A stretch of DNA of 32,000 nucleotides from Candidatus Methanoperedens sp. (GCA_027460535.1 JAPZAR010000021.1:30279-62278); one strand, 5' to 3'. Shown: positions 15,268 to 32,000, numbered from the stretch's first letter. Notes: generated from the letters alone by a model not told the origin. Made by a program: numbers and translations.

Positions 15268-18200
15268 CTAATATTCTACCTTCAAGCTCCCTATATCGGT
15301 CATCAACTCCAACAGCACAATGCCAGATGGTGTCACTTTCTGCTCCTTTTTCCCTTCAATCTTAACACTTATCTCGGTTTGATCTTTTTTCCCGCTAAAC
15401 TTTGCCTTGGCATCGAAGAGCTTCTTAACTTCGATCTCTTGCTCCAATTCATTGAGCAAGCCCTTCTCCTCAGTGTATTCCACCTGATCTCTGTTCATTG
15501 CTATGTTCGAAACTGTTCCAGCGTTGTACTGTGTGCTGATGACCTCTATTTCAGCTTCCTTGCCCTCTTTCTTGTGTCTTAAGATGAGTGTGAGCGAGTT
15601 GTTTGCAATATCCCTGAGGGCGTACTGTCTCCGTTCCCAGGCTTTTTCGTTCTGGTCTTTTTGCTCTTTCTTATCTTTATTTTCTTTCTTCGAAGGCAAT
15701 ATTATATAGTTTGTATCATTTCCAGTCTCGACGTTGTATACCCTGAAATCTTTCAAGGAGATGTCGAATCTTATTGCTGCTTCTGGAGGTGTCTTGTCAA
15801 TTTTGATCGTTTGGCTCTTAATCAATTCTACGTTGCCCGCATTATCTGTTGAGCAATAGTAAATCGTTGATATCCCTTCGCTGCTTATGTTGAACGGGGC
15901 AGTATATCGAATCCAGGTTGCATTATCCAGGCTATATTCAATCCAGTTCACGCCCGAACCACCTAGATTGTCCGTTGCCGTTAGATTCATCCGGACATCA
16001 GAAATGTACCAACCGTTATTGCCAATGCTTCCAGATAATACAGCAGTTGTTATTGGAGATACGGTATCAGAAGTGGCTATTTGTGGAATAGATGGGCCAC
16101 CGTCGTCTATGATTATGCCATTGGCTGTAAGGTCATCGTCTCCTAATCCTCCATCTGTGAGTGTTATTGTTATGGTGTTGCCATTGATGCTGCTGGGAAT
16201 AGTGTACCAATGAGTATTGTGGTTTTCTCCATATTTCCAGTAAGTTGTACCATCTGGCAGGTATTCTGGAAATGTCATTGTGAGAGTTATGCTGCCGCCA
16301 AGATTTATGCCTGTAATGTTGAATCTGAAAAGACCATAATAGAGATTTGCCTCAATTGGAGGTTGTTCAAGTATGGAATTCGGATCCACAGCTATCATAT
16401 CTTGAATAGTGCCTGCGCTTGATTGAAGGAACACGGTGCCTTTTCCGGTGATAGATTCAATATGGAATCCGGATGGTTCTATCACTGATAAACTTACACT
16501 TCCACTAACTTCTCCATTTCTTGCAGTTATTGTTGTTATTCCTGGTGAAAATGTATATGCAAAAAATATACCTTGACCCATATCAAATGTTCCCAAGCTT
16601 GAATTGCTGGAACTCCAAGTTACTATAGAGGTGATGTCATTCCCATTTTGATCCTTCGCAGTAAAGGAAATTGTATTACCCATAGCAACTGATGGCATAG
16701 CTGGTGAAATAGTTATAGTTGTGATTGATGATGAAACAGTCACATTTACACCTTCTGTTAAACTACCACTTCGTGCTGTTATTATTGCTGTTCCTGTTCC
16801 AGTTGCTGTAAACTTTGCTCCTGAATAAAATGTGTCTGTAATCGGTTCAATTGTGCCCACTGTTGGATCACTGATGATCCACGTTACAGGTAATTCCATG
16901 ATAACTCCAAATTGATCTTTGGGCATAGCGAAAAAATCCCAATTATAACCCGCAAAAATCACTCCATAATCTTGAACCTCTTCGGTGGTGGGAGAAAGTG
17001 TTAAAGATGTTAATTTTTGTTCATACGGCATTTTAAATGATACCAACGGATATCTATCAACATCAGAACCCTCTTGAATATTATAACTTGAATCACATAT
17101 GTTATTATCGTCTGAATCAATACAACCTTCAAAATTTTCATCAAAATTACTATAATGATTACCTATATTCTCGTAATCCCACTGATTCTGACCATTGCTA
17201 TAAACTAGATCCTTTAAGAAATTATTCTGATAAATTACATTGTTATTGCTGGAATCCAAATAGATACCTGCCTCATTTGCCGATAATATATTTTTAAATA
17301 TCATATTCTCTATTGAATTATAAAAATAAATACCGTCACCATTTGAAATTACAATATTTTCTGATATAAGGTTATAATCAGAGCCGTCCAAAAAAATACC
17401 TTCACGATTATTCGAGTAAACATTCCCGTTGATGAGGTTATTTCTTGAAGATTTGAGGTAAACTCCATTTTGGTTTGAAAATATATCATTATTTGTAATC
17501 TTGTTATTATTCGAATTTACCTTAATTCCTGCATAATTGAAATCATAATTAACTTCCGAGTTTGTAACTCCAAATCCTTCAAGTGTTATTCCATTTGAGG
17601 ATATTGTAATTGGACTACCAAACCCCCCAGCATCTACTATTGGCTTCCCACTGCCGGTATCAACTCCTTTTAATATAAGTTCAGGAATATTCACGTCCGC
17701 GTTTTCATGATAAGTACCGCTGTTAACAAGGATTGTATCCCCAGGATATGCTGCATCGAGAGCATCTTGGATTCTGGTATAATCACAATCACTGGGGCAA
17801 ACTGTGCGCGTAATTGGAGTTGGTATCACAGGTGTTGTGGGTAATACCAATGAAACCAATGGATACCTATCCACATTATTTGGATCCAAAGGATTGTTTC
17901 CGCTTGGAATATTATAGCTTGAATCACATATGTTATTGGAATCAGAATCAATACAACCTTCAAAATTTTCATCAAAATTGCTGTAATGATTTCCAATAAT
18001 TCCATTATCCCAATTATTATTTGATAACCCATAGTTGTCAATGGCGTTTTCACTGTTACCAAAAAAATTGTTCTGATAGATATTATTGCTATTGCTTAGT
18101 AATATTATGCCCCCCATCTGGCAACATTCCAATCTTCTTAAACCATTTAGATAGACATTATTACCCGTAATGATATTTCCTTCTTGTGAATATGCACCTC

Positions 18201-21200
18201 CTCCAACAAAAAGTCCCATATTATTTAAATAAATATTATTGTTTGAAATAATATTATTGTTAGGACTTGAATGAGTTAAAATGCCAATACCATTGGAGAA
18301 AACATTATTATTTGAAATGTAGTTATTTGTTGTAGCTATATTTATTCCTGCATTGAAGTCAGCTTCGTATTCACCACCGCTATAAAAAAATAATTCACCA
18401 CCACTATTGCTTGCATTAAATCCTTCAAGAGTAATTCCATTAGCAGAAAGTTTGATCGCACTACCAGTGCCACCAGCATCTACAATCGGCATTGTACCAT
18501 CTGTTTTCTGACCCCGAAGGGTGAGTTGTTTGTTGATATCCACATTTTCTTGATACGTTCCACTATGCACTAAAATCATATCACCAATGTTCGCTGCATC
18601 AATAGCCGCTTGAATTCCGTTGTAATTGCAATTATTTTGGCAGACAGTAAGTGTCGCAGGATTCGGATTGGGCGACCCTATTACAAGATTTATGTTTGTC
18701 GTTTTTGTCTCTCCACCACCTGTTCCAACAATGACTACTGTATAAGATCCTCGTGGTGTTGTATTTGATGTAGTGATAGTTACTCTAGTAGCTTCATTAA
18801 GCATTGCCGGATTCTGAGAAAATTTACAGGAAGTTCCTTCCGGTAATCCGGAACAGCTAAGCATAACAGGTGTAACAAAACTTCCTTGACTGATGAGATC
18901 AATTAATAGTGACATAAAACCACCAATTGCAACAGACTGAGATGGTGATTCATAAAGTGAAAGAGTGAACGTTGGATCGTTGTCCAGAACTTGGTAATAT
19001 TCCTCGTGCACCTCATTTCCATTAGCATCTTTCCATGTCTTAGAAAGATCATAACTATCATAACCCCAACTATACCAGCTACCTGAACCATCATCTGCGG
19101 TAACATACATTGGAAATGAACTTAATCTGTCACTTGGACTGGTTAACTTTTTCGACATCCATGTATATTCTTGTTGGGAATCACAATATGAACTATCTTT
19201 ATTTGGATCATAAGAGTAATCCCTTGTGCAGTTATACTTTATACTTGAATCATAATCCCTGCGGTCGCCGATATTTAAAATTTTATGTCCGGGGAGTTCA
19301 GGTGTCGCTCCAAATGACCACTGATAATAAGTTTCTCCGACTAATAAATAATATTCATCATATCCATCGCCGTCATAGTCTTTTATATGCCAGTTATTAG
19401 CACAATAAGGGCTATTAACTACAGTTTTAAGATAGTAGCCCACATCAGTATTAGAGAGATCTTTCGAAAAATCCACACAATATGAAGGAATGCCCTGAAT
19501 ACTTGATCTTGTACTGAACTGCCAGCTATATGGTGACTGCAAATTATTATTTGCCAAATCCTTAACATTTGTTCCCACCGAAACAATATACGTTGCGTCA
19601 TAATCAAGGTCTGAACTTGGAGTATAAGTCATGGTGTTGCTGTTCCAGTAAAAGCTTCCTGCAGTTGAAGGAGATATTGAAAAAGACGATTCGGCAGATG
19701 CATGATCTATTGCTTCACTGAAGGTGATGGTTATTGATGTATTTGCAGGAATATTGCTACCAGTCGGAGTATTATAAGTGATTGTCGGTGGAGTGGTGTC
19801 TGTTGGTGGAGGTTGTCCTAACGATGCGCTAAAATCCATATGATCGCTATTATCAGCGGCATCGTTTGCCCAGTCGCTCCAGAAATAACCATTGTAAGCT
19901 CTTACATGCCAATGGTAATGCTTTCCATCAACTAAGCCCCCATTTATATATTCTGCAATTGAAGGTGTAATTTGAGAAGACTCTGGATTCGAAATAGTCT
20001 TTTCAAGAACAATCTTGGTGCCGTCAGTTTTCAAGCCGCTATCCTCCCAAACTCTAATTTGATAAGCTTTGATTTTATTTAAGGATATGTCACTTAAAGG
20101 AGGCCACCATCGATACGTGGGTGTTAAAGTATTGACATGAGAATCCATCTCTGGCTCTTGTAATATTGGTGTTTTTGGTATAAGATTTATCCTTCCTTTC
20201 CCATCCAATAGTGTTTCTTTTTCATCCTCGGTCAGGACGTCGATTGCTGTATCTTTCAGGATAGTTTCTGCTGTTGGTGCATTATTTCCCATCCTCTGTA
20301 AAAGTAAAAGTGCTCCAGCAACATGGGGCGCAGCAAAAGAACTTCCAGATATATAATTTTCATAGCCATTTTCCGAAGTATTTAATGTGTATATACTCTT
20401 ACCTGGTGCTGCAAAATCTGGTTTCGCATAATCTGGGGGTACGATTTTAGGATTTTGTGGGCTGCCACCCAAAAATAAGTAATCATTAAAATCTTGAATA
20501 GAAGAGACACTAATTACCTTTACACCAGTTGATGGTGATATAGGATACTTATCATCTTTATTTCCTGCTGCGGCAACGAAACTTGTATCACTGTCTACTT
20601 TATCTGATGCATACTGAGCGATCTCGTCATAACAGCTACCCTGAAAAGAAGGGCAAATTGAGGTGACAATAACATTTGCACCATTATCTACGGCAAAATT
20701 AATTCCAGCTTCATAATCAATAAGACCCGTAATACCCTCAGCAGGCTTTATAATAATGAATTTTGCTTTTGGTGCAATTTCCCAAATAATCCCTGCAATT
20801 CCAGTTCCATGTCCTTCACTATCATCAATACCGTAAATTGCATATGGACCACGAGAGGCAATTATATTTATTTTCCAATCAACAGGATTATTTTTACCGT
20901 CCATATTCACAATTGGGTGATCTATATCTATCCCTGAATCAATTATGGCTACAATTTTGCCCTCACCATAATTTCCCCATCCCCTTTCATGCATTTTGTC
21001 AAACCCAATATTTTCAATTCCCCAATTTTCTTTATTCATACAATCCCAATATGATTTTGGGTCGTTGTTTATTAAATCTGTACCGCATCTTATATCAGCA
21101 GCACTCGCTCCGCCAGCCAGCAATAAGATTGCCAGTATTGTTATCCCAAAAACTATCCTAAGGACACGCTCTTTATTCTTTTTATTCTTAAACATCTTTC

Positions 21201-21204
21201 CCAC
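15268..21204 (-). CDS. Giant secreted multidomain protein: signal peptide, subtilisin-like S8 protease, Ig-like domains, two right-handed beta-helix modules, Big_2-like repeats, Lys/Glu-rich C-terminus
   Basis: N-terminal basic stretch plus hydrophobic stretch ending GGASA. S8 triad motifs are IIDSGID (D89), GHGTG (H132) and SGSSFAAPHVAG (S289), at nt about 20200-20982. There is an SbsA-type Ig domain (TITYNTP...ITITFSEAID) and two NosD/PbH1-like beta-helix modules rich in SNN/NNN turns. Big_2-like segments follow (ISPAMPSVAMGNTISFTAKDQNGN), then an LTDGGLGDDDLTANGIIIDDGGPS segment and a GWY...TATDNLGGSGV beta-barrel segment. Confidence 0.9.
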   Translation of the reverse strand: MGKMFKNKKNKERVLRIVFGITILAILLLAGGASAADIRCGTDLINNDPKSYWDCMNKENWGIENIGFDKMHERGWGNYGEGKIVAIIDSGIDIDHPIVNMDGKNNPVDWKINIIASRGPYAIYGIDDSEGHGTGIAGIIWEIAPKAKFIIIKPAEGITGLIDYEAGINFAVDNGANVIVTSICPSFQGSCYDEIAQYASDKVDSDTSFVAAAGNKDDKYPISPSTGVKVISVSSIQDFNDYLFLGGSPQNPKIVPPDYAKPDFAAPGKSIYTLNTSENGYENYISGSSFAAPHVAGALLLLQRMGNNAPTAETILKDTAIDVLTEDEKETLLDGKGRINLIPKTPILQEPEMDSHVNTLTPTYRWWPPLSDISLNKIKAYQIRVWEDSGLKTDGTKIVLEKTISNPESSQITPSIAEYINGGLVDGKHYHWHVRAYNGYFWSDWANDAADNSDHMDFSASLGQPPPTDTTPPTITYNTPTGSNIPANTSITITFSEAIDHASAESSFSISPSTAGSFYWNSNTMTYTPSSDLDYDATYIVSVGTNVKDLANNNLQSPYSWQFSTRSSIQGIPSYCVDFSKDLSNTDVGYYLKTVVNSPYCANNWHIKDYDGDGYDEYYLLVGETYYQWSFGATPELPGHKILNIGDRRDYDSSIKYNCTRDYSYDPNKDSSYCDSQQEYTWMSKKLTSPSDRLSSFPMYVTADDGSGSWYSWGYDSYDLSKTWKDANGNEVHEEYYQVLDNDPTFTLSLYESPSQSVAIGGFMSLLIDLISQGSFVTPVMLSCSGLPEGTSCKFSQNPAMLNEATRVTITTSNTTPRGSYTVVIVGTGGGETKTTNINLVIGSPNPNPATLTVCQNNCNYNGIQAAIDAANIGDMILVHSGTYQENVDINKQLTLRGQKTDGTMPIVDAGGTGSAIKLSANGITLEGFNASNSGGELFFYSGGEYEADFNAGINIATTNNYISNNNVFSNGIGILTHSSPNNNIISNNNIYLNNMGLFVGGGAYSQEGNIITGNNVYLNGLRRLECCQMGGIILLSNSNNIYQNNFFGNSENAIDNYGLSNNNWDNGIIGNHYSNFDENFEGCIDSDSNNICDSSYNIPSGNNPLDPNNVDRYPLVSLVLPTTPVIPTPITRTVCPSDCDYTRIQDALDAAYPGDTILVNSGTYHENADVNIPELILKGVDTGSGKPIVDAGGFGSPITISSNGITLEGFGVTNSEVNYDFNYAGIKVNSNNNKITNNDIFSNQNGVYLKSSRNNLINGNVYSNNREGIFLDGSDYNLISENIVISNGDGIYFYNSIENMIFKNILSANEAGIYLDSSNNNVIYQNNFLKDLVYSNGQNQWDYENIGNHYSNFDENFEGCIDSDDNNICDSSYNIQEGSDVDRYPLVSFKMPYEQKLTSLTLSPTTEEVQDYGVIFAGYNWDFFAMPKDQFGVIMELPVTWIISDPTVGTIEPITDTFYSGAKFTATGTGTAIITARSGSLTEGVNVTVSSSITTITISPAMPSVAMGNTISFTAKDQNGNDITSIVTWSSSNSSLGTFDMGQGIFFAYTFSPGITTITARNGEVSGSVSLSVIEPSGFHIESITGKGTVFLQSSAGTIQDMIAVDPNSILEQPPIEANLYYGLFRFNITGINLGGSITLTMTFPEYLPDGTTYWKYGENHNTHWYTIPSSINGNTITITLTDGGLGDDDLTANGIIIDDGGPSIPQIATSDTVSPITTAVLSGSIGNNGWYISDVRMNLTATDNLGGSGVNWIEYSLDNATWIRYTAPFNISSEGISTIYYCSTDNAGNVELIKSQTIKIDKTPPEAAIRFDISLKDFRVYNVETGNDTNYIILPSKKENKDKKEQKDQNEKAWERRQYALRDIANNSLTLILRHKKEGKEAEIEVISTQYNAGTVSNIAMNRDQVEYTEEKGLLNELEQEIEVKKLFDAKAKFSGKKDQTEISVKIEGKKEQKVTPSGIVLLELMTDIGSLKVEY
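17038..17811 (-). repeat. Intragenic module 2 (aa ~1132-1389): tandem duplicate of module 1
   Basis: It begins RTVCPSDCDYTRIQDALDAAYPGDTILVNSGTY and ends GNHYSNFDENFEGCIDSDDNNICDSSYNIQ...VDRYPLVS. Order and length match module 1. Confidence 0.8.
17851..18657 (-). repeat. Intragenic module 1 (aa ~850-1118): beta-helix plus Cys-containing tail
   Basis: It begins TLTVCQNNCNYNGIQAAIDAANIGDMILVHSGTY and ends GNHYSNFDENFEGCIDSDSNNICDSSYNIP...VDRYPLVS. The tail (17908-17994) is near-identical at nucleotide level to 17077-17163. Confidence 0.8.
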
Positions 21205-24410: not shown

Positions 24411-24659
24411 ATGAAAGCGGAAAAATTGCTTGAACGCATAACTCTTAACCCAGATGTTATGACAGGAAAACCTGTAATCAAGGGGACAAGACTTACGGTG
24501 CAGTTTATCGTGGGATTATTAGCGCATGGCGCTTCTGTGGAGGAAATCCTTGAAGAATACAAAGGATTAACCAGGGAAGATATAAGAGCATGTTTGCTTT
24601 TTGCAACAGAATCCCTTGAAAACATTACATTTATGCCTTTGACAGCAGAGGCTTGTTAG
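24411..24659 (+). CDS. DUF433 domain protein (antitoxin-like HTH) embedded in the R-M operon
   Basis: 82 aa. PDVMTGKPVIKGTRLTVQFIVGLLAHGASVEEILEEYKGLTREDIRACLLFA is the characteristic DUF433 core. Confidence 0.8.
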   Translation: MKAEKLLERITLNPDVMTGKPVIKGTRLTVQFIVGLLAHGASVEEILEEYKGLTREDIRACLLFATESLENITFMPLTAEAC

Positions 24660-24669
24660 ATGCGGTTTT

Positions 24670-27612
24670 TTGAAAAAGAAAATGACAGCGCCCAAACCAA
24701 CAGAACATAAAAGCGTCCAAGCTCGTATACTAAAATATGCACAGGAAATCGGCTGGAGGTATGTCTCGCAAAGCGAAGCCGAGCAGCGCAGAGGTTTTGA
24801 TCCATCCGGCGCTTCTCCGAGAGAGAAAGCCAAAAACGCTTCCCGCTTTTTTACCGATACTTTATTTGAAAAGGTAAAAGACTTTAATCCAAAGTTCAAA
24901 GACAGCAAAGAAGAACTCCTTCGCAAACTCAATTTGCCTTTGCCAACCATCGCGGGCAACCGGGATTTTTTACAGCATCTTCAGGGAGAAAAAACGTTCT
25001 TCAGCAAAGAGGAAAACCGTGAATTTAACCTTGTGCTGATAAACTATGGCGAGCCAGACAAAAATGTGTATGAAGTAACCGAAGAATATTATCTTTTCAA
25101 TGGGCAGTATGCCAATCGGGAGGATGTTGCATTTCTCATCAATGGCATTCCGGTTCTTGTAATCGAATGTAAAAACGCCACCAAAGACGAAGCCATTGCA
25201 ATAGGTATAGACCAGATCAGACGCTATCACCGTGAGACGCCGGAGTTTTTTTGTCCAGAGCAGATTTTCACAGCCACTGAAAGCATTGGTTTTTCGTATG
25301 GCGTAACATGGAACCTCATCAGAAGAAATATTTTTAACTGGAAAGAAGAAGAAATCGGCAATCTGGAAGTAAAAATTAAATCCTTCTGCGGCAGGCAGAA
25401 TATTCTTGATTACTTGAAAAAATTCATTATTTTTGCAGAGCAAAATGAAGAGCTGAATAAATACATTTTAGCTCAACACCAGAAAACAGCAGTAACAAAA
25501 GTATTAGAACGGGCAATCGACCCGAAAAAGACAAGAGGTTTAGTATGGCATACGCAGGGAAGCGGCAAAACCTTTACTATGATAAAAATAGCTGAACTGC
25601 TGTTTAAAGCCCCCGAAGCCGAAAAACCCACCATTCTCTTGTTGATCGACCGCAATGAACTGGAAGACCAGATGGCCAGAAATCTTGAATCGTTGGGTGT
25701 AAAAAATGTAGTACAGGCAGAGCATATAAGAGACTTGCAAAAATTGCTGAAAAATGATTATAGAGGAATAATAGTCAGTATGATGCATAAATTCCAGGAT
25801 ATGCCTGCTGATGTCAATCTTCGCAAAAACATTTATGTGCTGATTGATGAAGCGCACCGAACCACAGGAGGAGATTTAGGAACATATCTGATGGCTGCCG
25901 TCCCGAATGCTACTTTAATAGGATTTACAGGCACGCCGGTTGATAAAACAGTTCATGGTAAAGGAACATTCAAGACCTTTGGCCTTGAAGACGAATCTGG
26001 TTATCTGCATAAATATTCCATTGCAGAAAGCATTGAAGATTATACAACATTGCCCCTGTTTTATGGGATGGCTCCAAATGAGCTTTTAGTCCCCAGGGAT
26101 ATTTTGGAAAAAGAGTTTTTGAACCTGGCGGAAGCTTATGGGGTAAGCGACATCGAAGAATTGAATAAAATCCTGGAACGTGCTGTTAATACCCGCAACT
26201 TTTTGAAAGGAAAGGAACGGGTAGAAAAGGTGGCTGAATACGTGGCAAGTCATTACAAAGAAAATGTCGAGCCAATGGGCTATAAGGCATTTTTAGTTGG
26301 AGTTGACCGTCCAGCATGTGCCATGTATAAAAAGGCGTTAGATAAGTTTCTGCCCACGGAATATTCGGAAGTAGTTTACACCGGCAACAACAACGACACA
26401 GAAGACCTAAAGAAATATCACATTGACACTAAAAAAGAAAAGGAAATTAGAAAGAAGTTCACCAAAATCGGAGAACTGCCCAAGATCCTGATCGTTACGG
26501 AAAAACTTTTGACAGGTTTTGATGCACCGATTTTGTACGCCATGTATCTGGACAAACCAATGCGTGACCATACCCTTCTTCAAGCCATTGCAAGGGTAAA
26601 CAGACCATATGAGAACGAAGAAAAGGATATGAAAAAGCCTCATGGTTTTGTCCTGGACTTTGTAGGCATATTTGACAAACTTGAAAAAGCACTCGCATTT
26701 GATAGCAAAGAAATCAATTCGATAATAAAGGATATTCAACTGCTGAAACACCTGTTCAAGGCAAAGATGGAAGAAAAAGTTCCTCCTTACTTACAACTGA
26801 TTAAATTTGGTTTTAACGACAAAGACACAGATAATCTCATTGCATACTTTAGAGATAAATCCAAAAGAAAAGAATTTTTCAAATTATACAAAGAGGTGGA
26901 AATGCTATATGAAATCATTTCACCTGATAAATTCTTAAGACCATACATTGACAATTACACTACGCTTTCTGCTATTTACCAAATCGTAAGAAATGCCTAT
27001 GCAAAAAGAGTCCAGGTTGACAGGGAGTTCCAGAGAAAAACAAATGAATTGATCCAGAATAAAATAGGCATGAGCAATTTGCAGCAGGTTAATGAATTCT
27101 TTGAGATTAACGAAGAAACGATTAAAAAAATACAAGATACTCAGAAAAATGACAATACACGGGTAATCAACTTAGTAAAGAGTATTGAAAGAATTGCTGA
27201 AGAAGAATCTGATGACCCATTTCTAATTGGTTTGCAGGAAAGAGCTGCCCAAGTAGAAGAAAGCTATGAGGACAGGCAAATTACCACGCAGGAAGCATTA
27301 GAAGAAATCAGAAAGATTTATGAAGATGACATAAAACGGAAAAAAGAACAGGTAGAGAAGGGCTTTGATGGCCTAACTTTCTTCATTTACAGAACACTGC
27401 TCGACAAAGATTTCAAAAAGGCGGATGAAATAACCAAGCAAATTAAAGCAGAGTTTGTTAATAATCCGAACTGGAAATCAAGCGAAAAGGAATTGAGAGA
27501 TCTGAGAAAAGGAACATATTACGCTGTGCTTAGCGAAGAAGAGAATATTGACAGAGCTGCTGCAATTGTAGAAGATTTATTTAATCAGTTATTCAAAGCC
27601 TACAACTTATGA
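24670..27612 (+). CDS. hsdR: Type I restriction enzyme, restriction/translocase subunit R
   Basis: N-terminal PD-(D/E)xK nuclease region (DVAFLINGIPVLVIECKN), helicase motif I (WHTQGSGKTFTM), DEAH (LIDEAHRT) and motif VI (QAIARVNRP), then a long helical C-terminus. The ORF-track start is TTG at 24670; ATG at 24682 (MTAPKP) is an equally plausible start. Confidence 0.95.
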   Translation: MKKKMTAPKPTEHKSVQARILKYAQEIGWRYVSQSEAEQRRGFDPSGASPREKAKNASRFFTDTLFEKVKDFNPKFKDSKEELLRKLNLPLPTIAGNRDFLQHLQGEKTFFSKEENREFNLVLINYGEPDKNVYEVTEEYYLFNGQYANREDVAFLINGIPVLVIECKNATKDEAIAIGIDQIRRYHRETPEFFCPEQIFTATESIGFSYGVTWNLIRRNIFNWKEEEIGNLEVKIKSFCGRQNILDYLKKFIIFAEQNEELNKYILAQHQKTAVTKVLERAIDPKKTRGLVWHTQGSGKTFTMIKIAELLFKAPEAEKPTILLLIDRNELEDQMARNLESLGVKNVVQAEHIRDLQKLLKNDYRGIIVSMMHKFQDMPADVNLRKNIYVLIDEAHRTTGGDLGTYLMAAVPNATLIGFTGTPVDKTVHGKGTFKTFGLEDESGYLHKYSIAESIEDYTTLPLFYGMAPNELLVPRDILEKEFLNLAEAYGVSDIEELNKILERAVNTRNFLKGKERVEKVAEYVASHYKENVEPMGYKAFLVGVDRPACAMYKKALDKFLPTEYSEVVYTGNNNDTEDLKKYHIDTKKEKEIRKKFTKIGELPKILIVTEKLLTGFDAPILYAMYLDKPMRDHTLLQAIARVNRPYENEEKDMKKPHGFVLDFVGIFDKLEKALAFDSKEINSIIKDIQLLKHLFKAKMEEKVPPYLQLIKFGFNDKDTDNLIAYFRDKSKRKEFFKLYKEVEMLYEIISPDKFLRPYIDNYTTLSAIYQIVRNAYAKRVQVDREFQRKTNELIQNKIGMSNLQQVNEFFEINEETIKKIQDTQKNDNTRVINLVKSIERIAEEESDDPFLIGLQERAAQVEESYEDRQITTQEALEEIRKIYEDDIKRKKEQVEKGFDGLTFFIYRTLLDKDFKKADEITKQIKAEFVNNPNWKSSEKELRDLRKGTYYAVLSEEENIDRAAAIVEDLFNQLFKAYNL

Positions 27613-27935
27613 TTATGAGTAAATGGAACGATAAATCTGAATTCAAGGCAAGAGTAAAAGAGTTTGCCGGAAAAATGGATATTGAAGTAAAAGCACTTGC
27701 TATCAGACCTATGACAAACAAATGGGCTTCATGTTCTACAGATGGTAATTTGAATTTCAATAAAGAACTTCTGGACATGGACAAAGAAATTGGTGACTAC
27801 GTAATTGTGCATGAATTGTTGCATTTCAAGGTTCCCAATCATAGTAAACTTTGGAAAAGCTTAATGACTGCTTACCTGGGCGACTATGAGAAGTTAGAAA
27901 AGAAATTGAATAAAATAAAAATTGGAGAAAAATAG
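27609..27935 (+). CDS. Short YgjP-like (DUF45/M48-related) zinc metallopeptidase
   Basis: VIVHELLHFKVPNHSKLW is the HExxH...NHS signature of the DUF45/YgjP family often linked to type I R-M. The start overlaps the hsdR stop (ATGA at 27609-27612). At 108 aa it is shorter than typical family members. Confidence 0.7.
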   Translation: MIMSKWNDKSEFKARVKEFAGKMDIEVKALAIRPMTNKWASCSTDGNLNFNKELLDMDKEIGDYVIVHELLHFKVPNHSKLWKSLMTAYLGDYEKLEKKLNKIKIGEK

Positions 27936-27940
27936 AAACT

Positions 27941-28013
27941 GCCGCCCCCATCTTGTGCCAACCAGAGCCGGACAGGTGGGGAGAAGATATCGCAAACAGT
28001 GAATCGCATAACG
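27941..28013. repeat. GC-rich intergenic repeat, copy 0 (short form lacking the central core)
   Basis: It starts 6 nt after the ygjP-like stop. CCGCCCCCATCTTG (27942-27955) matches copy 1 at 30071-30085. GAGCCGGACAGGTGGGGAGAAGATATC (27965-27991) matches copy 2 at 30796-30821. The core GCAGACCCGGTGCGTGCGGCATGCG is absent. Confidence 0.75.
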
Positions 28014-28242
28014 GTATAATTTCTTGATAATATGTTCTTTCAAGATACATAAAAATAAATACTTTAGACAATATATAGATATAATAGATAAACAGAACTC
28101 ATTGGAGTTCATAAACCTCAAGGGCTAAATTGACAGGAATTGAGAACGATATCTTATTAAGGAAGATGTTGCATTTCGTAGAAAAACACATAGACGATTT
28201 ACCAGTAGCTACAAAGGATGTTAAGAAATTGAGGATTTAAAA

Positions 28243-28902
28243 ATGAAGAGATTATTATATATTCCAAATGAATCTTTGCCAAAAATTTCAAAATTTTTAT
28301 CATTAGAAAAAAAATCTATTGAAACTTTTATCAATATTTTAATTGATTCCGAGAAAAAAAGTATTGTTGATTTATATCTTTCTATCATGAATGAAATGAA
28401 TGTTTCAGATGATGATGCAGCAGCAATCTTTTCCACCTATAAATATTTGTTATTTGTTTTGGAAGAAAACAATTTAAAATTTTCCGACCTTATTCCAGAA
28501 ACAAAATATATTTTGGAAACTTCCAAGATTCCAGATTATAACAAAATAAGCAAGAATGTAGATGTTAATTCAGAACATTTTAATAATTTATTTTCTGCTG
28601 GAAGCATTGAAGAGAAATTTGCAAAAAAAGAATTTTTATCTTCCGAAACATTCAACTCAGTGGTGGATATCCATTCTATTTGTGATATACGACCTTTTTT
28701 TAATGAAGAAAGAAATGAAATTTTGGACTTTCTAAATAGTATATATATCGAATTTACGGTTCAGGATTATGCGGATAATATTAAAATAATTCCACTGTCT
28801 TTTGACGATGAAGCTTTTGAAGACCTAATCAAAGAAATTGATAATATTAAAAAGAAAAAAGAGGTTATCAATAAGAAAATATCCAAATGGAGAAAGATTT
28901 GA
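28243..28902 (+). CDS. Hypothetical protein A of three-gene cassette (219 aa, acidic, Lys-rich tail)
   Basis: ATG is preceded by GAGG at 28231-28234. The ORF is long for such AT-rich DNA. Its stop TGA (28900-28902) directly abuts the next ATG. No recognisable motif. Confidence 0.7.
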   Translation: MKRLLYIPNESLPKISKFLSLEKKSIETFINILIDSEKKSIVDLYLSIMNEMNVSDDDAAAIFSTYKYLLFVLEENNLKFSDLIPETKYILETSKIPDYNKISKNVDVNSEHFNNLFSAGSIEEKFAKKEFLSSETFNSVVDIHSICDIRPFFNEERNEILDFLNSIYIEFTVQDYADNIKIIPLSFDDEAFEDLIKEIDNIKKKKEVINKKISKWRKI

Positions 28903-29409
28903 ATGTTTAATACCCAAATTATTAATAGAAAGTTTTCAATCATCCGTGATATAAATTCATATCGGGCATCTCCAGCAAAATACAAACAAATGATACATTC
29001 AGGGAAATCTCACTTGGATAATGTTTATGATCCTTTAAATCCTGTAATAAGAATTGATAGAGGTAAAATTCGTTCTGGACGACATGCTGAAATTCATAAT
29101 CGAAGGGCTCGACCTATTGATTTCAAGAAAAAAAAGTTAAGAGTCAGGGTTTGCCCGGATATTAATAACTTAACCATTGGTGATTCCTTCAATGATTTTT
29201 ATTCTCCAGTCAATTTTAATATAAAAAAATATATAACAAAATTAGAAACAAAACATTCAGTTGATGATATAACCACTTTGGGCAGTACAACCCATGAAGA
29301 AAATTTAGAATATGATGTTTTTATTCAGATGCCTCCCATAAAAAAATGGACCGCACGGGTAAAAATAAAAAGTATAGAAAACGCAAAAATGAATATAGTG
29401 GAACCATAA
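28903..29409 (+). CDS. Hypothetical protein B of three-gene cassette (168 aa, basic)
   Basis: The start abuts the upstream stop (TGAATG) and GGAGA lies at 28888-28892. There is a basic patch (RSGRHAEIHNRRARPIDFKKKKLRVRV). No recognisable family. Confidence 0.7.
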   Translation: MFNTQIINRKFSIIRDINSYRASPAKYKQMIHSGKSHLDNVYDPLNPVIRIDRGKIRSGRHAEIHNRRARPIDFKKKKLRVRVCPDINNLTIGDSFNDFYSPVNFNIKKYITKLETKHSVDDITTLGSTTHEENLEYDVFIQMPPIKKWTARVKIKSIENAKMNIVEP

Positions 29410-29415
29410 TGATAT

Positions 29416-29946
29416 ATGGCGATTGAATATCCTTGGTACGAGGTTGTAAATTGTGATGCTGATTTAATGCAAGGTGACTTTATAAAAGGTTGTCCTATAA
29501 TTATTCCCCCTTCAGAGATACAAGAGGAAGAAGAATTTGAAGCTCGTATTCTTAAATATAATGTAATCATTTTGAGCCAATCCTGCGATATTGCAAATAA
29601 GAAAATCGATCTGGTTCTTCTTTGTCCATTCTGGCCCCTTGAAGATTTAGAGAAACAAAGTACTTTTTTTAAAAGTAGCGATGGGAAAGAAGAATTAAGA
29701 CGTGGAAATGTTACAGGATATCATTTATTAAATAAATGTGGGCTAAAAGGGTTCAAAATGGCTTATCAGGTCGTTGATTTTCGTAATATTTATAGTGTTT
29801 CTTTAGAATTTCTTTCTGATCTGACTATAAAGAAAGGTGAAAGATTGCGTTTATTACCCCCTTATAGAGAGCATCTATCTCAAAGCTTTGCAAGATTCTT
29901 TATGAGAGTAGGCCTCCCTGTAGATATACCTGCATTTAAAAAATAA
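29416..29946 (+). CDS. Hypothetical protein C of three-gene cassette (176 aa, Cys-containing, LSQSCD motif)
   Basis: It starts 6 nt after the B stop. Distinctive strings are LMQGDFIKGCPIIIP, VIILSQSCDIANKKIDLVLLCPFWP and LLPPYREHLSQSFARFFMRVGLP. I cannot name a family. Confidence 0.7.
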   Translation: MAIEYPWYEVVNCDADLMQGDFIKGCPIIIPPSEIQEEEEFEARILKYNVIILSQSCDIANKKIDLVLLCPFWPLEDLEKQSTFFKSSDGKEELRRGNVTGYHLLNKCGLKGFKMAYQVVDFRNIYSVSLEFLSDLTIKKGERLRLLPPYREHLSQSFARFFMRVGLPVDIPAFKK

Positions 29947-29950
29947 GAAA

Positions 29951-29977
29951 CAACATGCTTTTGTTGTACGCATGTTG
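29951..29977 (+). terminator. Hairpin immediately after the three-gene operon
   Basis: CAACATGC (29951-29958) pairs with GCATGTTG (29970-29977) across an 11-nt T-rich loop, 4 nt after the stop codon. Its function as an archaeal terminator is not established. Confidence 0.3.
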
Positions 29978-30050
29978 AACAAAATTGTAACCTGTCCCAG
30001 GAAGATAGTAGCCAGATCGATTCTTTTTCGCAATTATTCTTTACGAGCAG

Positions 30051-30180
30051 GTTGCTCCGCCCTCATCACCCCGCCCCCCATCTTGCTCCCTACTCCCTCC
30101 CTGCTTGCAGACCCGGTGCCTGCGGCATGCGCGGAGCCCGGAAAGGTGCGGAGAACACGATCAAATGCGGTGCGCCCAAC
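30051..30180. repeat. GC-rich intergenic repeat, copy 1 (long form, ~130 bp)
   Basis: It contains the core GCAGACCCGGTGCCTGCGGCATGCG (30107-30131), followed by AGGTGCGGAGAACACGATCAAATGCGGTGCGCCCAAC. It lies between the three-gene cassette and the first TA pair. Confidence 0.85.
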
Positions 30181-30216
30181 ATGAAATGGTTGCCTTTCGT
30201 GAGACGTTAGCTATTC

Positions 30217-30483
30217 TTATTTATAAACATCTCCTCTAAGATCAACCCTATGGATCAGGATAACCTTTTGTTCCCAGATAACTTCGTAAACAATTCTGAA
30301 CTTCCCTTTACGGATACGATACTTATTCTTTTCACCTCTTAGTTTGGTGATATCAAGGGATTTTATGGGAACCGGGTCTTCTTTCAGGACAAGCATTGCC
30401 TCTTTGAGGCGCGCCCTGTCATGTTTCTGCAGGGAAGAAATAAATTTCAAAGATTTGGCTTTGATATTTATTTCAAATGTCAT
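30217..30483 (-). CDS. RelE/ParE-family type II toxin
   Basis: 88 aa. KYRIRKGKFRIVYEVIWEQKVILIHRVDLRGDVYK is a typical RelE/ParE C-terminal core. The start overlaps the upstream antitoxin stop by 4 nt. Confidence 0.85.
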   Translation of the reverse strand: MTFEINIKAKSLKFISSLQKHDRARLKEAMLVLKEDPVPIKSLDITKLRGEKNKYRIRKGKFRIVYEVIWEQKVILIHRVDLRGDVYK

Positions 30484-30668
30484 GCATTCAATACCTTTAG
30501 TAATTCGGCTTCCGAAGCTATTCTATCCTTGCTCCTTATCGCCCTAAGGTCTTCGGCTTCAGGTTCTTCTTCCGGGATCAGCCTATCAACAAGTTTTGAA
30601 TATAAATTTGTGAGCATATCAAGGTCGGCGCGAATCTTTCTCAATTCAACCACTGTTTCGGTTACCAT
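30480..30668 (-). CDS. Putative antitoxin partner of the RelE/ParE toxin (family unassigned)
   Basis: 62-aa acidic ORF directly upstream of and overlapping the toxin gene, which is the canonical type II TA arrangement. Confidence 0.65.
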   Translation of the reverse strand: MVTETVVELRKIRADLDMLTNLYSKLVDRLIPEEEPEAEDLRAIRSKDRIASEAELLKVLNA

Positions 30669-30703
30669 GCAATATCAGTTAATATTTTAAACCTTATAAG
30701 GAT

Positions 30704-30715
30704 TTTCCATGGAAA
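30704..30715. promoter_or_regulatory. Perfect 12-bp palindrome TTTCCATGGAAA upstream of TA pair 1 (possible operator)
   Basis: It lies 36-47 nt upstream of the antitoxin start (30668, minus strand) in AT-rich promoter-like DNA (TTAATATTTTAAACCTTATAAGG). Confidence 0.35.
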
Positions 30716-30740
30716 GTATAAACTGAAGCAATTCATCAGA

Positions 30741-30844
30741 TGCGCCTCACCCCGCCCCCTCCCCGTTTGCTGATCCGGTGCGTGCGGCATGCGGGGAGCC
30801 AGGACAGGTGGAGAACATATCTCGACCAAATGCGGGCGCCCAAC
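30741..30844. repeat. GC-rich intergenic repeat, copy 2 (~104 bp)
   Basis: The core is GCTGATCCGGTGCGTGCGGCATGCG (30768-30792), followed by GGGGAGCCAGGACAGGTGGAGAACATATC...AAATGCGGGCGCCCAAC. It lies between the two TA pairs. Confidence 0.85.
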
Positions 30845-30914
30845 TTTGAAAGGTTACATTTTAAGGAGGGAATAGCGCATAGCCAACAACTTACAAACGT
30901 TGTCTACGCAGTCC

Positions 30915-31202
30915 TTACTTATATGCATCTCCTCTATGCTGGACTGAAGTTATCCTGACTTTCCTTGGATCATTATCCACAGAATAAAGAACCCTGTACT
31001 TGCCAATCCTTAATCTGTAGGTATTATCCGGGTATCCTTCCATCGGCTTAACATCAAAACCTGATCTTGGTTGAACAGGATTCTTCTCAAATTCATCAAG
31101 TAATTTTAGAAATTTCTCAACAACGTATTTTGGGACTTTTTCTAAATCTTTCTCAACCCGTTCATCGATAAGAACTTCGTATGGAGTTGTGTTTCTGCTC
31201 AC
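30915..31202 (-). CDS. RelE/ParE-family type II toxin
   Basis: 95 aa. [35 protein letters not shown] is a typical RelE/ParE core. It lies 5 nt downstream of its antitoxin. Confidence 0.85.
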
Positions 31203-31207
31203 TCATA

Positions 31208-31438
31208 TCAACTTCCACTTGAAACTCTTTTCCTCATTCGAGATTTAAAATCTTCTTTTGATATCCCTTTAAAATCAGCAAGGCGGCGATAATGTTCTTG
31301 GATATGTTCCGCGCTTATATCTTCGATTGATACCTTATTCATGAGCATATTCAGGACATCATCAAAAGTCAAGTCACCAAACTTATAATCCGATAGCCTT
31401 TCTTTAGTTTTCTCATTTATTGTAATAGTCGTTGGCAT
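31208..31438 (-). CDS. Putative antitoxin, archaeal VapB-like/PF02697-like N-terminus
   Basis: 76 aa. MPTTITINEKTKERLSDYKFGDLTFDDVLNMLM resembles the TITIxExxxxxL...SFsDvI pattern of archaeal putative antitoxins. It sits directly upstream of the toxin. Confidence 0.65.
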   Translation of the reverse strand: MPTTITINEKTKERLSDYKFGDLTFDDVLNMLMNKVSIEDISAEHIQEHYRRLADFKGISKEDFKSRMRKRVSSGS

Positions 31439-31539
31439 AATTGAAATAATTGTTTTAATTGATATTAAAGTTATTTATGTTTCAAAGCATTTCATTACCC
31501 TGACAGATTCGTTTTCACACCTGGTCTGTTTGGGATAGT

Positions 31540-31622
31540 GTTGCGCCCACCTCCCCGCTGGCAGACCCGGTGCGTGCGGCATGCGTGGGAACAGGTGCGG
31601 GGAACACGATCAAAATGTGAAC
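31540..31622. repeat. GC-rich intergenic repeat, copy 3 (~83 bp)
   Basis: GTTGCGCCCACCTCCCCGCTG is followed by the core GCAGACCCGGTGCGTGCGGCATGCG (31561-31585), then TGGGAACAGGTGCGGGGAACACGATCAAAATGTGAAC. Confidence 0.85.
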
Positions 31623-31628
31623 TTTAAT

Positions 31629-31644
31629 ATATGTTTAAACATAT
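31629..31644. promoter_or_regulatory. Perfect 16-bp palindrome ATATGTTTAAACATAT upstream of the VapB-like gene (possible operator/promoter)
   Basis: It ends 8 nt before ATG 31653. The half-site ATATGTTTA recurs immediately afterwards at 31641-31649, overlapping the palindrome's right end. Confidence 0.4.
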
Positions 31645-31652
31645 GTTTACTT

Positions 31653-31901
31653 ATGACAGCCAAGACGATAACCATCCGCGAAGATATTTACAAAATGCTC
31701 CTCTCGATAAAGGGAGCAAACGAGAGCTTCAGCGATCTTTTTGAACGGCTCATAAAATCCCGAAAAAATATTGATAAACTAAAAGAATTGAGAGGCTCTG
31801 TTGAATTCAGGAATAAAGAAACTCTTTTGAAAGAGTTATCTAATAAAAGGAAGGAGATTATTTACCCAACTTTACCCCTATCCTCTGACAACAAAATCTA
31901 A
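31653..31901 (+). CDS. VapB-like putative antitoxin (PF02697-like)
   Basis: MTAKTITIREDIYKMLLSIKGANESFSDLFERLIKS matches the archaeal putative-antitoxin pattern. I set the start to ATG 31653, because the ORF-track start at 31581 lies inside the GC-rich repeat. No PIN/VapC gene follows before the window ends. Confidence 0.65.
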   Translation: MTAKTITIREDIYKMLLSIKGANESFSDLFERLIKSRKNIDKLKELRGSVEFRNKETLLKELSNKRKEIIYPTLPLSSDNKI

Positions 31902-32000
31902 GAAAAATTATTTTTCCTAAGGCAGTAACCTTTTTATTAGAATTTCGACCAAAAAATATATATGCTTTGTTGTCATATAATACATGACAACTATGAGCTT

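Follow-up and report, generated by a model that had tools for sequence, protein, structure and literature searches.

A co-oriented intergenic repeat at the junctions of reassorting toxin–antitoxin modules in Candidatus Methanoperedens

We analysed a 32,000-nucleotide (nt) stretch of DNA from Candidatus Methanoperedens sp. (GCA_027460535.1 JAPZAR010000021.1:30279-62278; hereafter the window), the far end of which carries an array of small gene cassettes separated by copies of a GC-rich repeat, here called the junction repeat. The left boundary of the array is formed by a ygjP-like metallopeptidase gene (27609-27935, + strand), which closes a type I restriction-modification operon. Beyond it, four gaps between genes stand out as GC-rich islands, with 52-58% GC in 200-nt windows against 22-40% around them. 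A preliminary description of this DNA, made from the sequence alone, had reported four repeat copies with long shared stretches, one of them a short form lacking the core, and all of them between genes. These copies proved to be real: three strong copies and one core-deleted copy (c0 to c3) occupy the four gaps at 27.9-31.7 kb, and every one of them is intergenic. The 19-nt core CCGGTGCSTGCGGCATGCG has exact matches at 30113, 30775, and 31567, always on the + strand, with 0.01 occurrences expected by chance. A search with the 3' motif GGAnAGGTGsGGrGAACA also finds c0, the short copy, at 27970, and the shared stretches were reproduced by MAFFT alignment and by a repeat search of the window. No further copy was found when the remaining 27 kb of the window was searched with a repeat profile.

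The first copy, c0 (27940-27994, +), lies directly after the ygjP-like gene and is a degenerate junction repeat with a weak profile match at 27966-27995. Its invariant core is deleted, and its 5' C-rich unit GCCGCCCCCATCTTG and 3' arm AGCCGGACAGGTGGGGAGAAGATATCGCA are retained; the left junction AATAGAAACTGCCGCCCC after ygjP is found at c0 and also at loci L064 and L099. The copy c1 (30016-30163, +; profile E 5e-21) is a long form with an upstream module A, composed of a T-run and CAATTATTCT... (30016-30050), a duplicated C-rich tract (30051-30107), an invariant block (30108-30138), and a 3' arm up to 30163. The copy c2 (30740-30824, +; profile E 2e-18) is a short form without module A, with its invariant block at 30770-30800. 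The copy c3 (+; profile E 1e-14) joins a module A remnant (31505-31539) to a repeat (31540-31614) that has lost internal sequence after the core. Both c1 and c3 carry the derived 3' end GAACACGATCAAA (repeat family D11), in a place where other copies with a RelE-type right flank have ...CATATCGCGATCAAA, which suggests exchange between copies inside one genome. The tail AAATGCGG(T/G)GCGCCCAAC, which the preliminary description had assigned to the ends of c1 and c2, is real, but it belongs to the RelE-type cassettes and not to the repeat, because it runs into homologous RelE-type 3' ends (repeat families D9 and D12). Similarly, the extension at 30164-30197 (AAATGCGGTGCGCCCAAC...GGTTGCC, +; repeat family D9) is cassette-specific: it recurs solely beside RelE-type toxin 3' ends and lies outside the family-wide repeat.

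The units between the copies are those first described, namely a three-gene operon, two antitoxin and ParE/RelE toxin pairs on the - strand, and a VapB-like gene. Cassette 1 (28243-29946, +) is the three-gene operon, which encodes proteins of 219, 168, and 176 aa at 22-34% GC. These proteins have no match in Pfam, NCBIfam, PADLOC, or PDB; the sole match, from PHROGs, is that of the third protein to phrog_4575, a family of unknown function, and single-sequence AlphaFold models reached a predicted local distance difference test (pLDDT) score of 30-34. The operon is a candidate defence or toxin-like module. Cassette 2 (30217-30668, -) comprises a 62-aa antitoxin gene (30480-30668) and an 88-aa ParE/RelE toxin gene (30217-30483), and cassette 3 (30915-31438, -) comprises a 76-aa antitoxin gene (31208-31438) and a 95-aa ParE/RelE toxin gene (30915-31202). 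Cassette 4 (31644-31901, +) is a VapB-type antitoxin gene (Pfam PF02697, E 1.3e-14). With their ParE_toxin and VapB matches, cassettes 2 to 4 fit the definition of type II toxin–antitoxin systems, in which neighbouring small genes encode toxin and antitoxin domains. Just before the vapB start codon, at 31620-31650, there is a perfect palindrome, ATATGTTTAAACATAT, which is probably the operator and promoter of the vapB cassette.

The repeat is a family of its own. A core scan of one genome per species gave 54 genome matches, 48 of which were chance hits in high-GC bacteria, the rest belonging to Methanoperedens-type metagenome-assembled genomes (MAGs). A core scan of metagenomes added 13 further true loci, and a profile hidden Markov model (HMM) was then built from the aligned copies. 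Together, these searches identified 45 distinct copies in about 20 loci on public Methanoperedens contigs; the comparison loci are mostly metagenomic contigs of 1-12 kb, with no complete genome among them. The richest arrays recovered by the profile HMM hold five copies in 3.6 kb (L011), five in 4.9 kb (L069), and four in 3.2 kb (L054), and eleven more loci, L089 included, hold two or three. All 29 adjacent pairs in all 15 multi-copy loci are co-oriented, an outcome with a chance probability of about 2e-9. No BLAST match to the repeat was found in plasmids, phages, or viruses; one IMG/VR match, at 63% GC, was rejected as a false positive.

In its short form the repeat measures about 95 nt, and in its long form about 150 nt. 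A full copy is built from an optional module A (a T-run plus AATTATTCTAT), a TGCGCC motif, one or two C-rich units, the invariant block, and the 3' arm CGGACAGGTGCGGAGAACATATCGCA, and its conserved portion reads CCCCGCCCCCTCCCTGCGC-GCAGACCCGGTGCGTGCGGCATGCGCGGAGCC-CGGACAGGTGCGGAGAACATATCGCA. The 31-nt invariant block CAGACCCGGTGCGTGCGGCATGCGCGGAGCC is conserved at 88% or more at nearly every position. The right edge is sharp, and past ATATCGCA the sequence belongs to the next module; on the left the boundary is ragged, the C-rich units numbering one or two. Module A is present in about 25 of the 45 copies as a T-run followed by CACAATTATTCTAT..GAGCCAG..TTGCGCC; in these, a run of four to seven T and then AATTATTCTAT or AATTTATCTATAT stand 22-25 nt ahead of the TGCGCC edge. 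Exact identity between copies extends over at most about 31-45 nt.

The same layout is found in at least 14 multi-copy loci besides the window. A Pfam scan of 90 open reading frames (ORFs) in 28 inter-repeat intervals returned matches to toxin–antitoxin families throughout, namely PIN, ParE/RelE, MazE/AbrB, DUF433 with DUF5615, HEPN with nucleotidyltransferase (NTP_transf_2), HicA/HicB, and VapB. A few intervals hold unknown genes, such as the three-gene operon of the window and a 236-aa protein in L050, and the interval between two repeats at L064 1199-1366 holds no gene at all, as is also the case in L065 and L061. This gene-less unit contains a palindrome whose 37-nt arms, 73% complementary, consist of iterated CACGGAT/ATCCGTG motifs (L064 1261-1334). 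Modules measure 0.5-2 kb, and their orientation relative to the repeat is fixed per module type: about two-thirds are co-oriented with it, and the RelBE and HEPN–nucleotidyltransferase modules are reversed. Core searches made without regard to context found copies solely at junctions of toxin–antitoxin or defence modules. The outer ends of the arrays carry a complete or nearly complete repeat, so that n modules are accompanied by n+1 repeats, which is the expected outcome of a repeat-bearing circle inserting into a resident repeat. Arrays occupy at least three chromosomal sites, and their ends adjoin asd, a decarboxylase gene, a helicase gene, an AAA_15 gene, or an insertion sequence (IS); the copy beside asd stops at GGTGCGG, without AGAACATATCGCA. 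At one array end, the adjoining gene encodes an IS transposase of the DDE_5 family (L063 11-1390).

The modules delimited by these repeats reassort among strains and arrays. The RelBE unit of the window (30093-30739) recurs in L069 and L050 at 91-93% identity among other neighbours, and in both loci the homology starts in the C-rich tract and stops just ahead of the next repeat. The three-gene operon recurs in L013 (1-968), 90% identical, before a repeat of a different form, and cassette 3 recurs in L074 and L062 with differing right-hand neighbours. Between ygjP and asd, L064 carries the gene-less unit and a VapBC pair, whereas four other modules follow ygjP in the window. Genome-wide scatter of the repeat and a fixed gene order had been named at the outset as observations that would speak against cassettes; what we found was a recurring layout with reshuffled cassettes.

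The exchange appears to be centred within the repeat. Among 41 copies, the pairs that share flanking DNA share only the left flank in 19 cases, only the right flank in 36, and both in one; an earlier count gave 17, 48, and 2, respectively. In the 32 nt left of the invariant block, left-sharing pairs have an identity of 0.79, compared with 0.68 for right-sharing pairs (p ~1e-6) and 0.67 for unrelated pairs (p ~7e-11), and in the 36 nt right of the block, right-sharing pairs have 0.81 against 0.70 for unrelated pairs (p ~5e-11); the copy pairs are not independent, so that these p-values are indicative only. The identities were taken from pairwise alignments, as values based on a multiple sequence alignment were too noisy. 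DNA to the left of the invariant block thus goes with the left neighbour and DNA to its right tends to go with the right one, with linkage breaking at the block. From the patterns of the left and right arms, we infer an exchange region in or beside the invariant block CAGACCCGGTGCGTGCGGCATGCGCGGAGCC. The ends of BLAST segments are uninformative on the exact crossover, because all repeats are alike.

The position of the repeat seems to be older than its present sequence. Close homologues of the RelE toxin lie mostly on contigs of less than 5 kb, as expected if assemblies break at repeats. In the lineage of the window, the RelBE module is again flanked by repeats of the window's own kind, the W-type (L089 and L090). 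In the lineage of L088, which belongs to another Methanoperedens MAG, a C-rich repeat of about 150-190 nt (585-775, 1498-1671, and 2573-2770) separates four toxin–antitoxin modules; it shares with the W-type only CCCTGC..GCAGAsCCG..GCrGCATG and also has an internal direct duplication. A diverged repeat in the same position indicates that the junction repeat is older than the W-type and has undergone concerted evolution within lineages. Such lineage-wise evolution fits a site that co-evolves with a recombinase, and equally homogenisation by recombination between copies. ORFs of 42 and 64 aa are annotated inside the L088 repeat on the opposite strand, in a frame unlike that of the W-type. A coding function of the repeat, for which the - strand ORFs that cross the copies (e.g. 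MFSAPVRAPRMPHAPG...) were considered, was rejected because indels put the copies in three frames and the L088-type repeat reads in another. Furthermore, the W-type and L088-type lineages have in common an element of about 90 nt that comes after the repeat and contains the inverted repeat GGAGGACAC...GTGTCCTC (L063, right of the repeat at 2501-2572, - strand; L088 775-870); this element could be a small structured unit or terminator.

Collectively, the repeat is probably a lineage-specific chromosomal junction repeat that acts as the exchange point through which modules are gained, lost, and shuffled. A module with a single repeat would recombine with a resident repeat, with the invariant block as the exchange region, and modules would thereby be inserted, deleted, or swapped while polarity is kept. 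Catalysis might fall to a site-specific recombinase that acts in trans and recognises the invariant block, or to host homologous recombination working on 30-100 nt of identity.

Several observations weigh against this interpretation, beginning with the non-independence of copy pairs noted above. Many copies are decayed, including c0, the copy at L064 position 1151, and that of L099, and orthologous copies diverge more than the neighbouring coding DNA; from both it follows that single copies are not strongly constrained. The effect in the right arm is only marginally stronger in right-sharing pairs, with an identity of 0.81, than in left-sharing pairs, with 0.77 (p 0.05). Between two closely related contigs, the differences are microhomology deletions reaching into repeats, so that illegitimate events shape the arrays as well, and some joins at repeats could be chimeric, since the loci are mostly short metagenomic contigs. 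In the loci compared, neither an excised circle nor a precise empty site was seen, and no recombinase linked to the arrays was found at the other array ends. In other lineages, the same RelBE family occurs as a solitary module with no repeat (L086 and L091-L098), which means that the module does not need the repeat.

A stronger form of this explanation holds that the arrays are the product of a new archaeal cassette-recombination platform, an analogue of the integron with a double-strand, non-hairpin site and a dedicated trans-acting recombinase. Such a platform would be specialised in stockpiling and exchanging toxin–antitoxin and defence modules, and its recombinase would co-evolve with the site, as in the W-type and the L088-type. 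We regard this version as a tentative possibility.

No recombinase was found within the window, in agreement with the initial remark that no integrase was visible. A sister strain (L055, GCA_027460495.1) is 99.7% identical to the window up to 31474 and is without c3 and vapB; it has instead, in L055 1-2290, a truncated LigB-like ORF (138 aa) and a 368-aa tyrosine recombinase, followed by the contig end. This recombinase falls far short of the NCBIfam cut-offs, with 85 against 220 bits for XerA and 38 against 265 bits for the integron integrase TIGR02249. It is followed by two arm-type direct repeat copies, CAATTCCGTAACGCAA, and GC-rich DNA, and its homologues lie at borders of housekeeping genes and unannotated element-like blocks, with no junction repeat within 10 kb of three homologues in long contigs. 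The protein was therefore rejected as the array integrase, being generic, with direct repeats of its own and homologues away from the junction repeats. Judging from this sequence context, an unrelated integrated element probably disrupted the array, and the recombinase would mark its edge.

The repeat could alternatively be a cis-acting expression element, such as a terminator or promoter, an insulator, or a small RNA gene, in which the T-run and TATA-like module A precede a GC-rich leader; it would pass on together with its modules, with shuffling as a by-product of homologous recombination between copies. We consider this explanation rather unlikely. Toxin–antitoxin modules need insulated transcription, and the copies are always intergenic. 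The T-run and AATTATTCTAT or AATTTATCTATAT at their distance from the TGCGCC edge would fit archaeal TATA/start spacing, but nearly half of the copies are without module A, several flank types are without a downstream T-run, and the solitary RelBE loci do without the repeat. Modules lie in both orientations, so that the repeat is not one kind of leader or terminator for all, and a scan of the repeats for bacterial-type promoters and terminators did not rise above shuffled sequences. The only recurrent hairpin, GUGCGUG-CGG-CAUGCGC, forms on the + strand alone because it needs G-U pairs. Against an RNA function, which the preliminary description had raised as a family of structured small RNAs and which is poorly supported, no consensus structure or covariation was detected: RNAalifold gave an invariant 8-bp hairpin without compensatory change in 26 copies and no + strand structure in 42 copies, and the folding energies of the copies equal those of shuffles (z -1.7 to +0.5). 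Rfam returned nothing on the repeats, whether at gathering thresholds or with E relaxed to 5, and a tRNA/tmRNA search of them was also negative.

The GC-rich, non-coding, multi-copy, and intergenic character of the repeat, its many decayed or internally deleted copies, and the fragmentation of assemblies at it would also suit a selfish non-autonomous element resembling miniature inverted-repeat transposable elements (MITEs), repetitive extragenic palindromic (REP) sequences, or palindrome-associated transposable elements (PATEs). Its transposase would be encoded elsewhere and co-orientation would result from strand-specific insertion. This reading, of which the REP/MITE form had been proposed initially, is poorly supported and in our view improbable. 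The terminal inverted repeat TTGCG...CGCAA comprises just 5 nt, and no palindromic stem, longer terminal inverted repeat, or target-site duplication was found around the copies. The sampled copies all lie at toxin–antitoxin or defence junctions, with none dispersed in unrelated intergenic DNA in the rest of the window or in seven integrase loci. Strains vary by whole modules and not by a repeat that comes and goes between constant neighbours, and both flanks are shared in just 1-2 of the 56-67 flank-sharing pairs; the n+1 repeats per n modules, with both array ends included, likewise speak against it.

Could the shuffling be an assembly artefact, with unrelated modules joined at a shared repeat and the true arrays fixed? 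The short metagenomic origin of most comparison loci and the breaking of assemblies at repeats would allow it, but exact identity between copies is probably too short for systematic chimeric joins. The arrangement of the window is reproduced in at least six independent assemblies, and identical locus pairs come from separate collections (L011/L072 and L013/L071). Random chimeras at the core would give the covariation of arm and flank, but not consistent co-orientation or the n+1 structure, and we hold an artefact to be very improbable.

The preliminary description had favoured an integron-like array. Its layout of cassettes, their recurrence, and their reshuffling stand: co-oriented sites lie at each cassette boundary, cassettes reassort, and 55 of 56 flank-sharing pairs share one flank. 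In its canonical form, the array would be a cluster of attC sites lacking integron integrases (CALIN), with the repeats as attC and IntI encoded past the contig end. This is the least credible explanation, although the co-oriented repeats of 70-130 nt, the promoter-bearing toxin–antitoxin cassettes, the reshuffling, and the GCCCAAC at the end of c1 and c2, which fits RYYYAAC, resemble an integron, and integrons and CALINs exist in archaeal MAGs (PMC9668308). The attC box pair, RYYYAAC...GTTRRRY in attC order, is found in 0 of 43 copies (40-nt flanks, both strands, 45-160 nt apart), and the GTTGC...GCCCAAC of c1 and c2 is the reverse of the attC box order. Single-stranded DNA folding of 42 copies shows no attC-like excess over shuffles, with mean z of +0.22 on the + strand and +0.09 on the - strand. 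No IntI, attI, or Pc is present, the L055 recombinase falling far below the integrase cut-off as given above, and the archaeal integron survey (PMC9668308) names neither Methanoperedens nor Halobacteriota in its main text.

The surroundings of the array offer further observations. Window positions 1-24 kb carry housekeeping genes, e.g. those for isopropylmalate dehydrogenase, GluRS, and Thg1, which identifies the window as chromosome. Just before the restriction-modification operon there is a 1,978-aa ORF (15268-21204, -), for which Peptidase_S8, NosD/beta-helix, and Big domains are annotated; it probably encodes a surface protein. The operon before the array comprises hsdM (21569), hsdS (23137), and hsdR (24670). 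Between hsdS and hsdR lies a gene for an 82-aa DUF433 antitoxin-type protein (24411-24659, +), which is without the usual DUF5615/PIN partner; a nearly identical DUF433 protein is encoded by a cassette of array L011 (847-1095), and in L101, a full DUF433 and DUF5615 pair is found directly upstream of hsdR. The chromosomal neighbourhoods of the hsdR-ygjP operon differ among genomes (L099 3775-4260; L100 and L101), and in L099 a decayed junction repeat follows ygjP in the same place as c0. The restriction-modification operon itself may move as a large unit with one repeat. By exact-protein look-ups, the window matches one end of a 53,973-nt contig with 100% identity, and source databases name the proteins Candidatus Methanoperedens. 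On the other side of the array, this contig ends about 100 nt past vapB, and all assemblies of the window strain end within about 100 nt after this gene. Window position 32000 corresponds to contig position 3, and no sequence is readable beyond it because the window stops 2 nt from the contig end.

To our knowledge, the stockpiling and reshuffling of single-gene cassettes is well understood in integrons alone, and in Archaea these are known only with canonical attC sites. No published description of the junction repeat was found in the literature on Methanoperedens, archaeal integrons, and toxin–antitoxin arrays, of which our coverage was incomplete. Should a dedicated recombinase exist, cassette capture would have been invented independently here, and archaeal genetics might gain a tool from it. 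Should homologous recombination be enough, the arrays would show how a short stretch of conserved sequence, a "landing pad", can make an exchangeable pool out of selfish toxin–antitoxin modules. Either way, the repeat accounts for the shattering of Methanoperedens assemblies in these regions and provides a sequence tag for the accessory pool of defence and toxin–antitoxin modules, including modules such as the three-gene operon.

Among known systems, tandem accretion at one att site, as in arrays of integrative mobile elements exploiting Xer (IMEX) at dif or in tRNA islands, likewise yields n elements with n+1 co-oriented sites. Accretion arrays use a single dif or tRNA site, and their elements are usually kilobases long with mobility genes of their own, whereas the Methanoperedens arrays consist of modules of 0.5-2 kb at three or more loci with no tRNA. 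REP sequences, bacterial interspersed mosaic elements (BIMEs), and MITEs are also GC-rich, non-coding, multi-copy, and intergenic, with many decayed copies (PMC3184786). REPs, however, are palindromic stem-loops that often alternate in orientation and occur genome-wide, and MITEs have terminal inverted repeats and duplications (PMC3184786), and the Methanoperedens repeat is neither.

The dif modules of Acinetobacter, bounded by pdif sites, come closer in behaviour: they are small, often toxin–antitoxin modules bounded by short sites and shuffled between replicons (PMC6449649, PMC13141974), and their recombinase, the host XerCD, is encoded elsewhere, with no adjoining integrase. The pdif sites are 28 bp long with an 11-6-11 dyad, alternate in orientation, and reside on plasmids (PMC6449649, PMC13141974), whereas the Methanoperedens repeat is about 95-150 nt long, has no dyad, is always co-oriented, and is chromosomal. 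The repeat consensus contains no Xer/dif-type site, which would span about 28 bp and place two inverted arms of about 11 bp on either side of a 6-8-bp spacer; inverted repeats of at least 5 nt in this consensus are limited to CGCGCA/TGCGCG (18 nt apart), CTGCG/CGCAG, TGCGC/GCGCA, and TTGCG/CGCAA.

Sedentary chromosomal integrons and CALINs, such as the Vibrio superintegron with its VCR attC sites and the archaeal integrons of Ghaly et al. 2022 (PMC9668308), likewise have co-oriented repeats of about 100 nt at cassette junctions. Their cassettes are likewise small and self-contained, include toxin–antitoxin pairs with promoters of their own, some reversed, and reassort, and CALINs likewise can lack a neighbouring integrase. 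Unlike integrons, the Methanoperedens site is without R''/R' boxes, an imperfect palindrome, or a folded-strand signature, and no IntI, attI, or Pc accompanies it; the modules are nearly all toxin–antitoxin pairs, not promoterless genes, and the arrays lie at several chromosomal sites. The Methanoperedens arrays work like integrons and CALINs and like Xer-dependent dif modules, and the defining tests of both came out negative. With a different site and no integron integrase, Methanoperedens follows an integron-like logic of polar arrays, a junction repeat, and changing neighbours.

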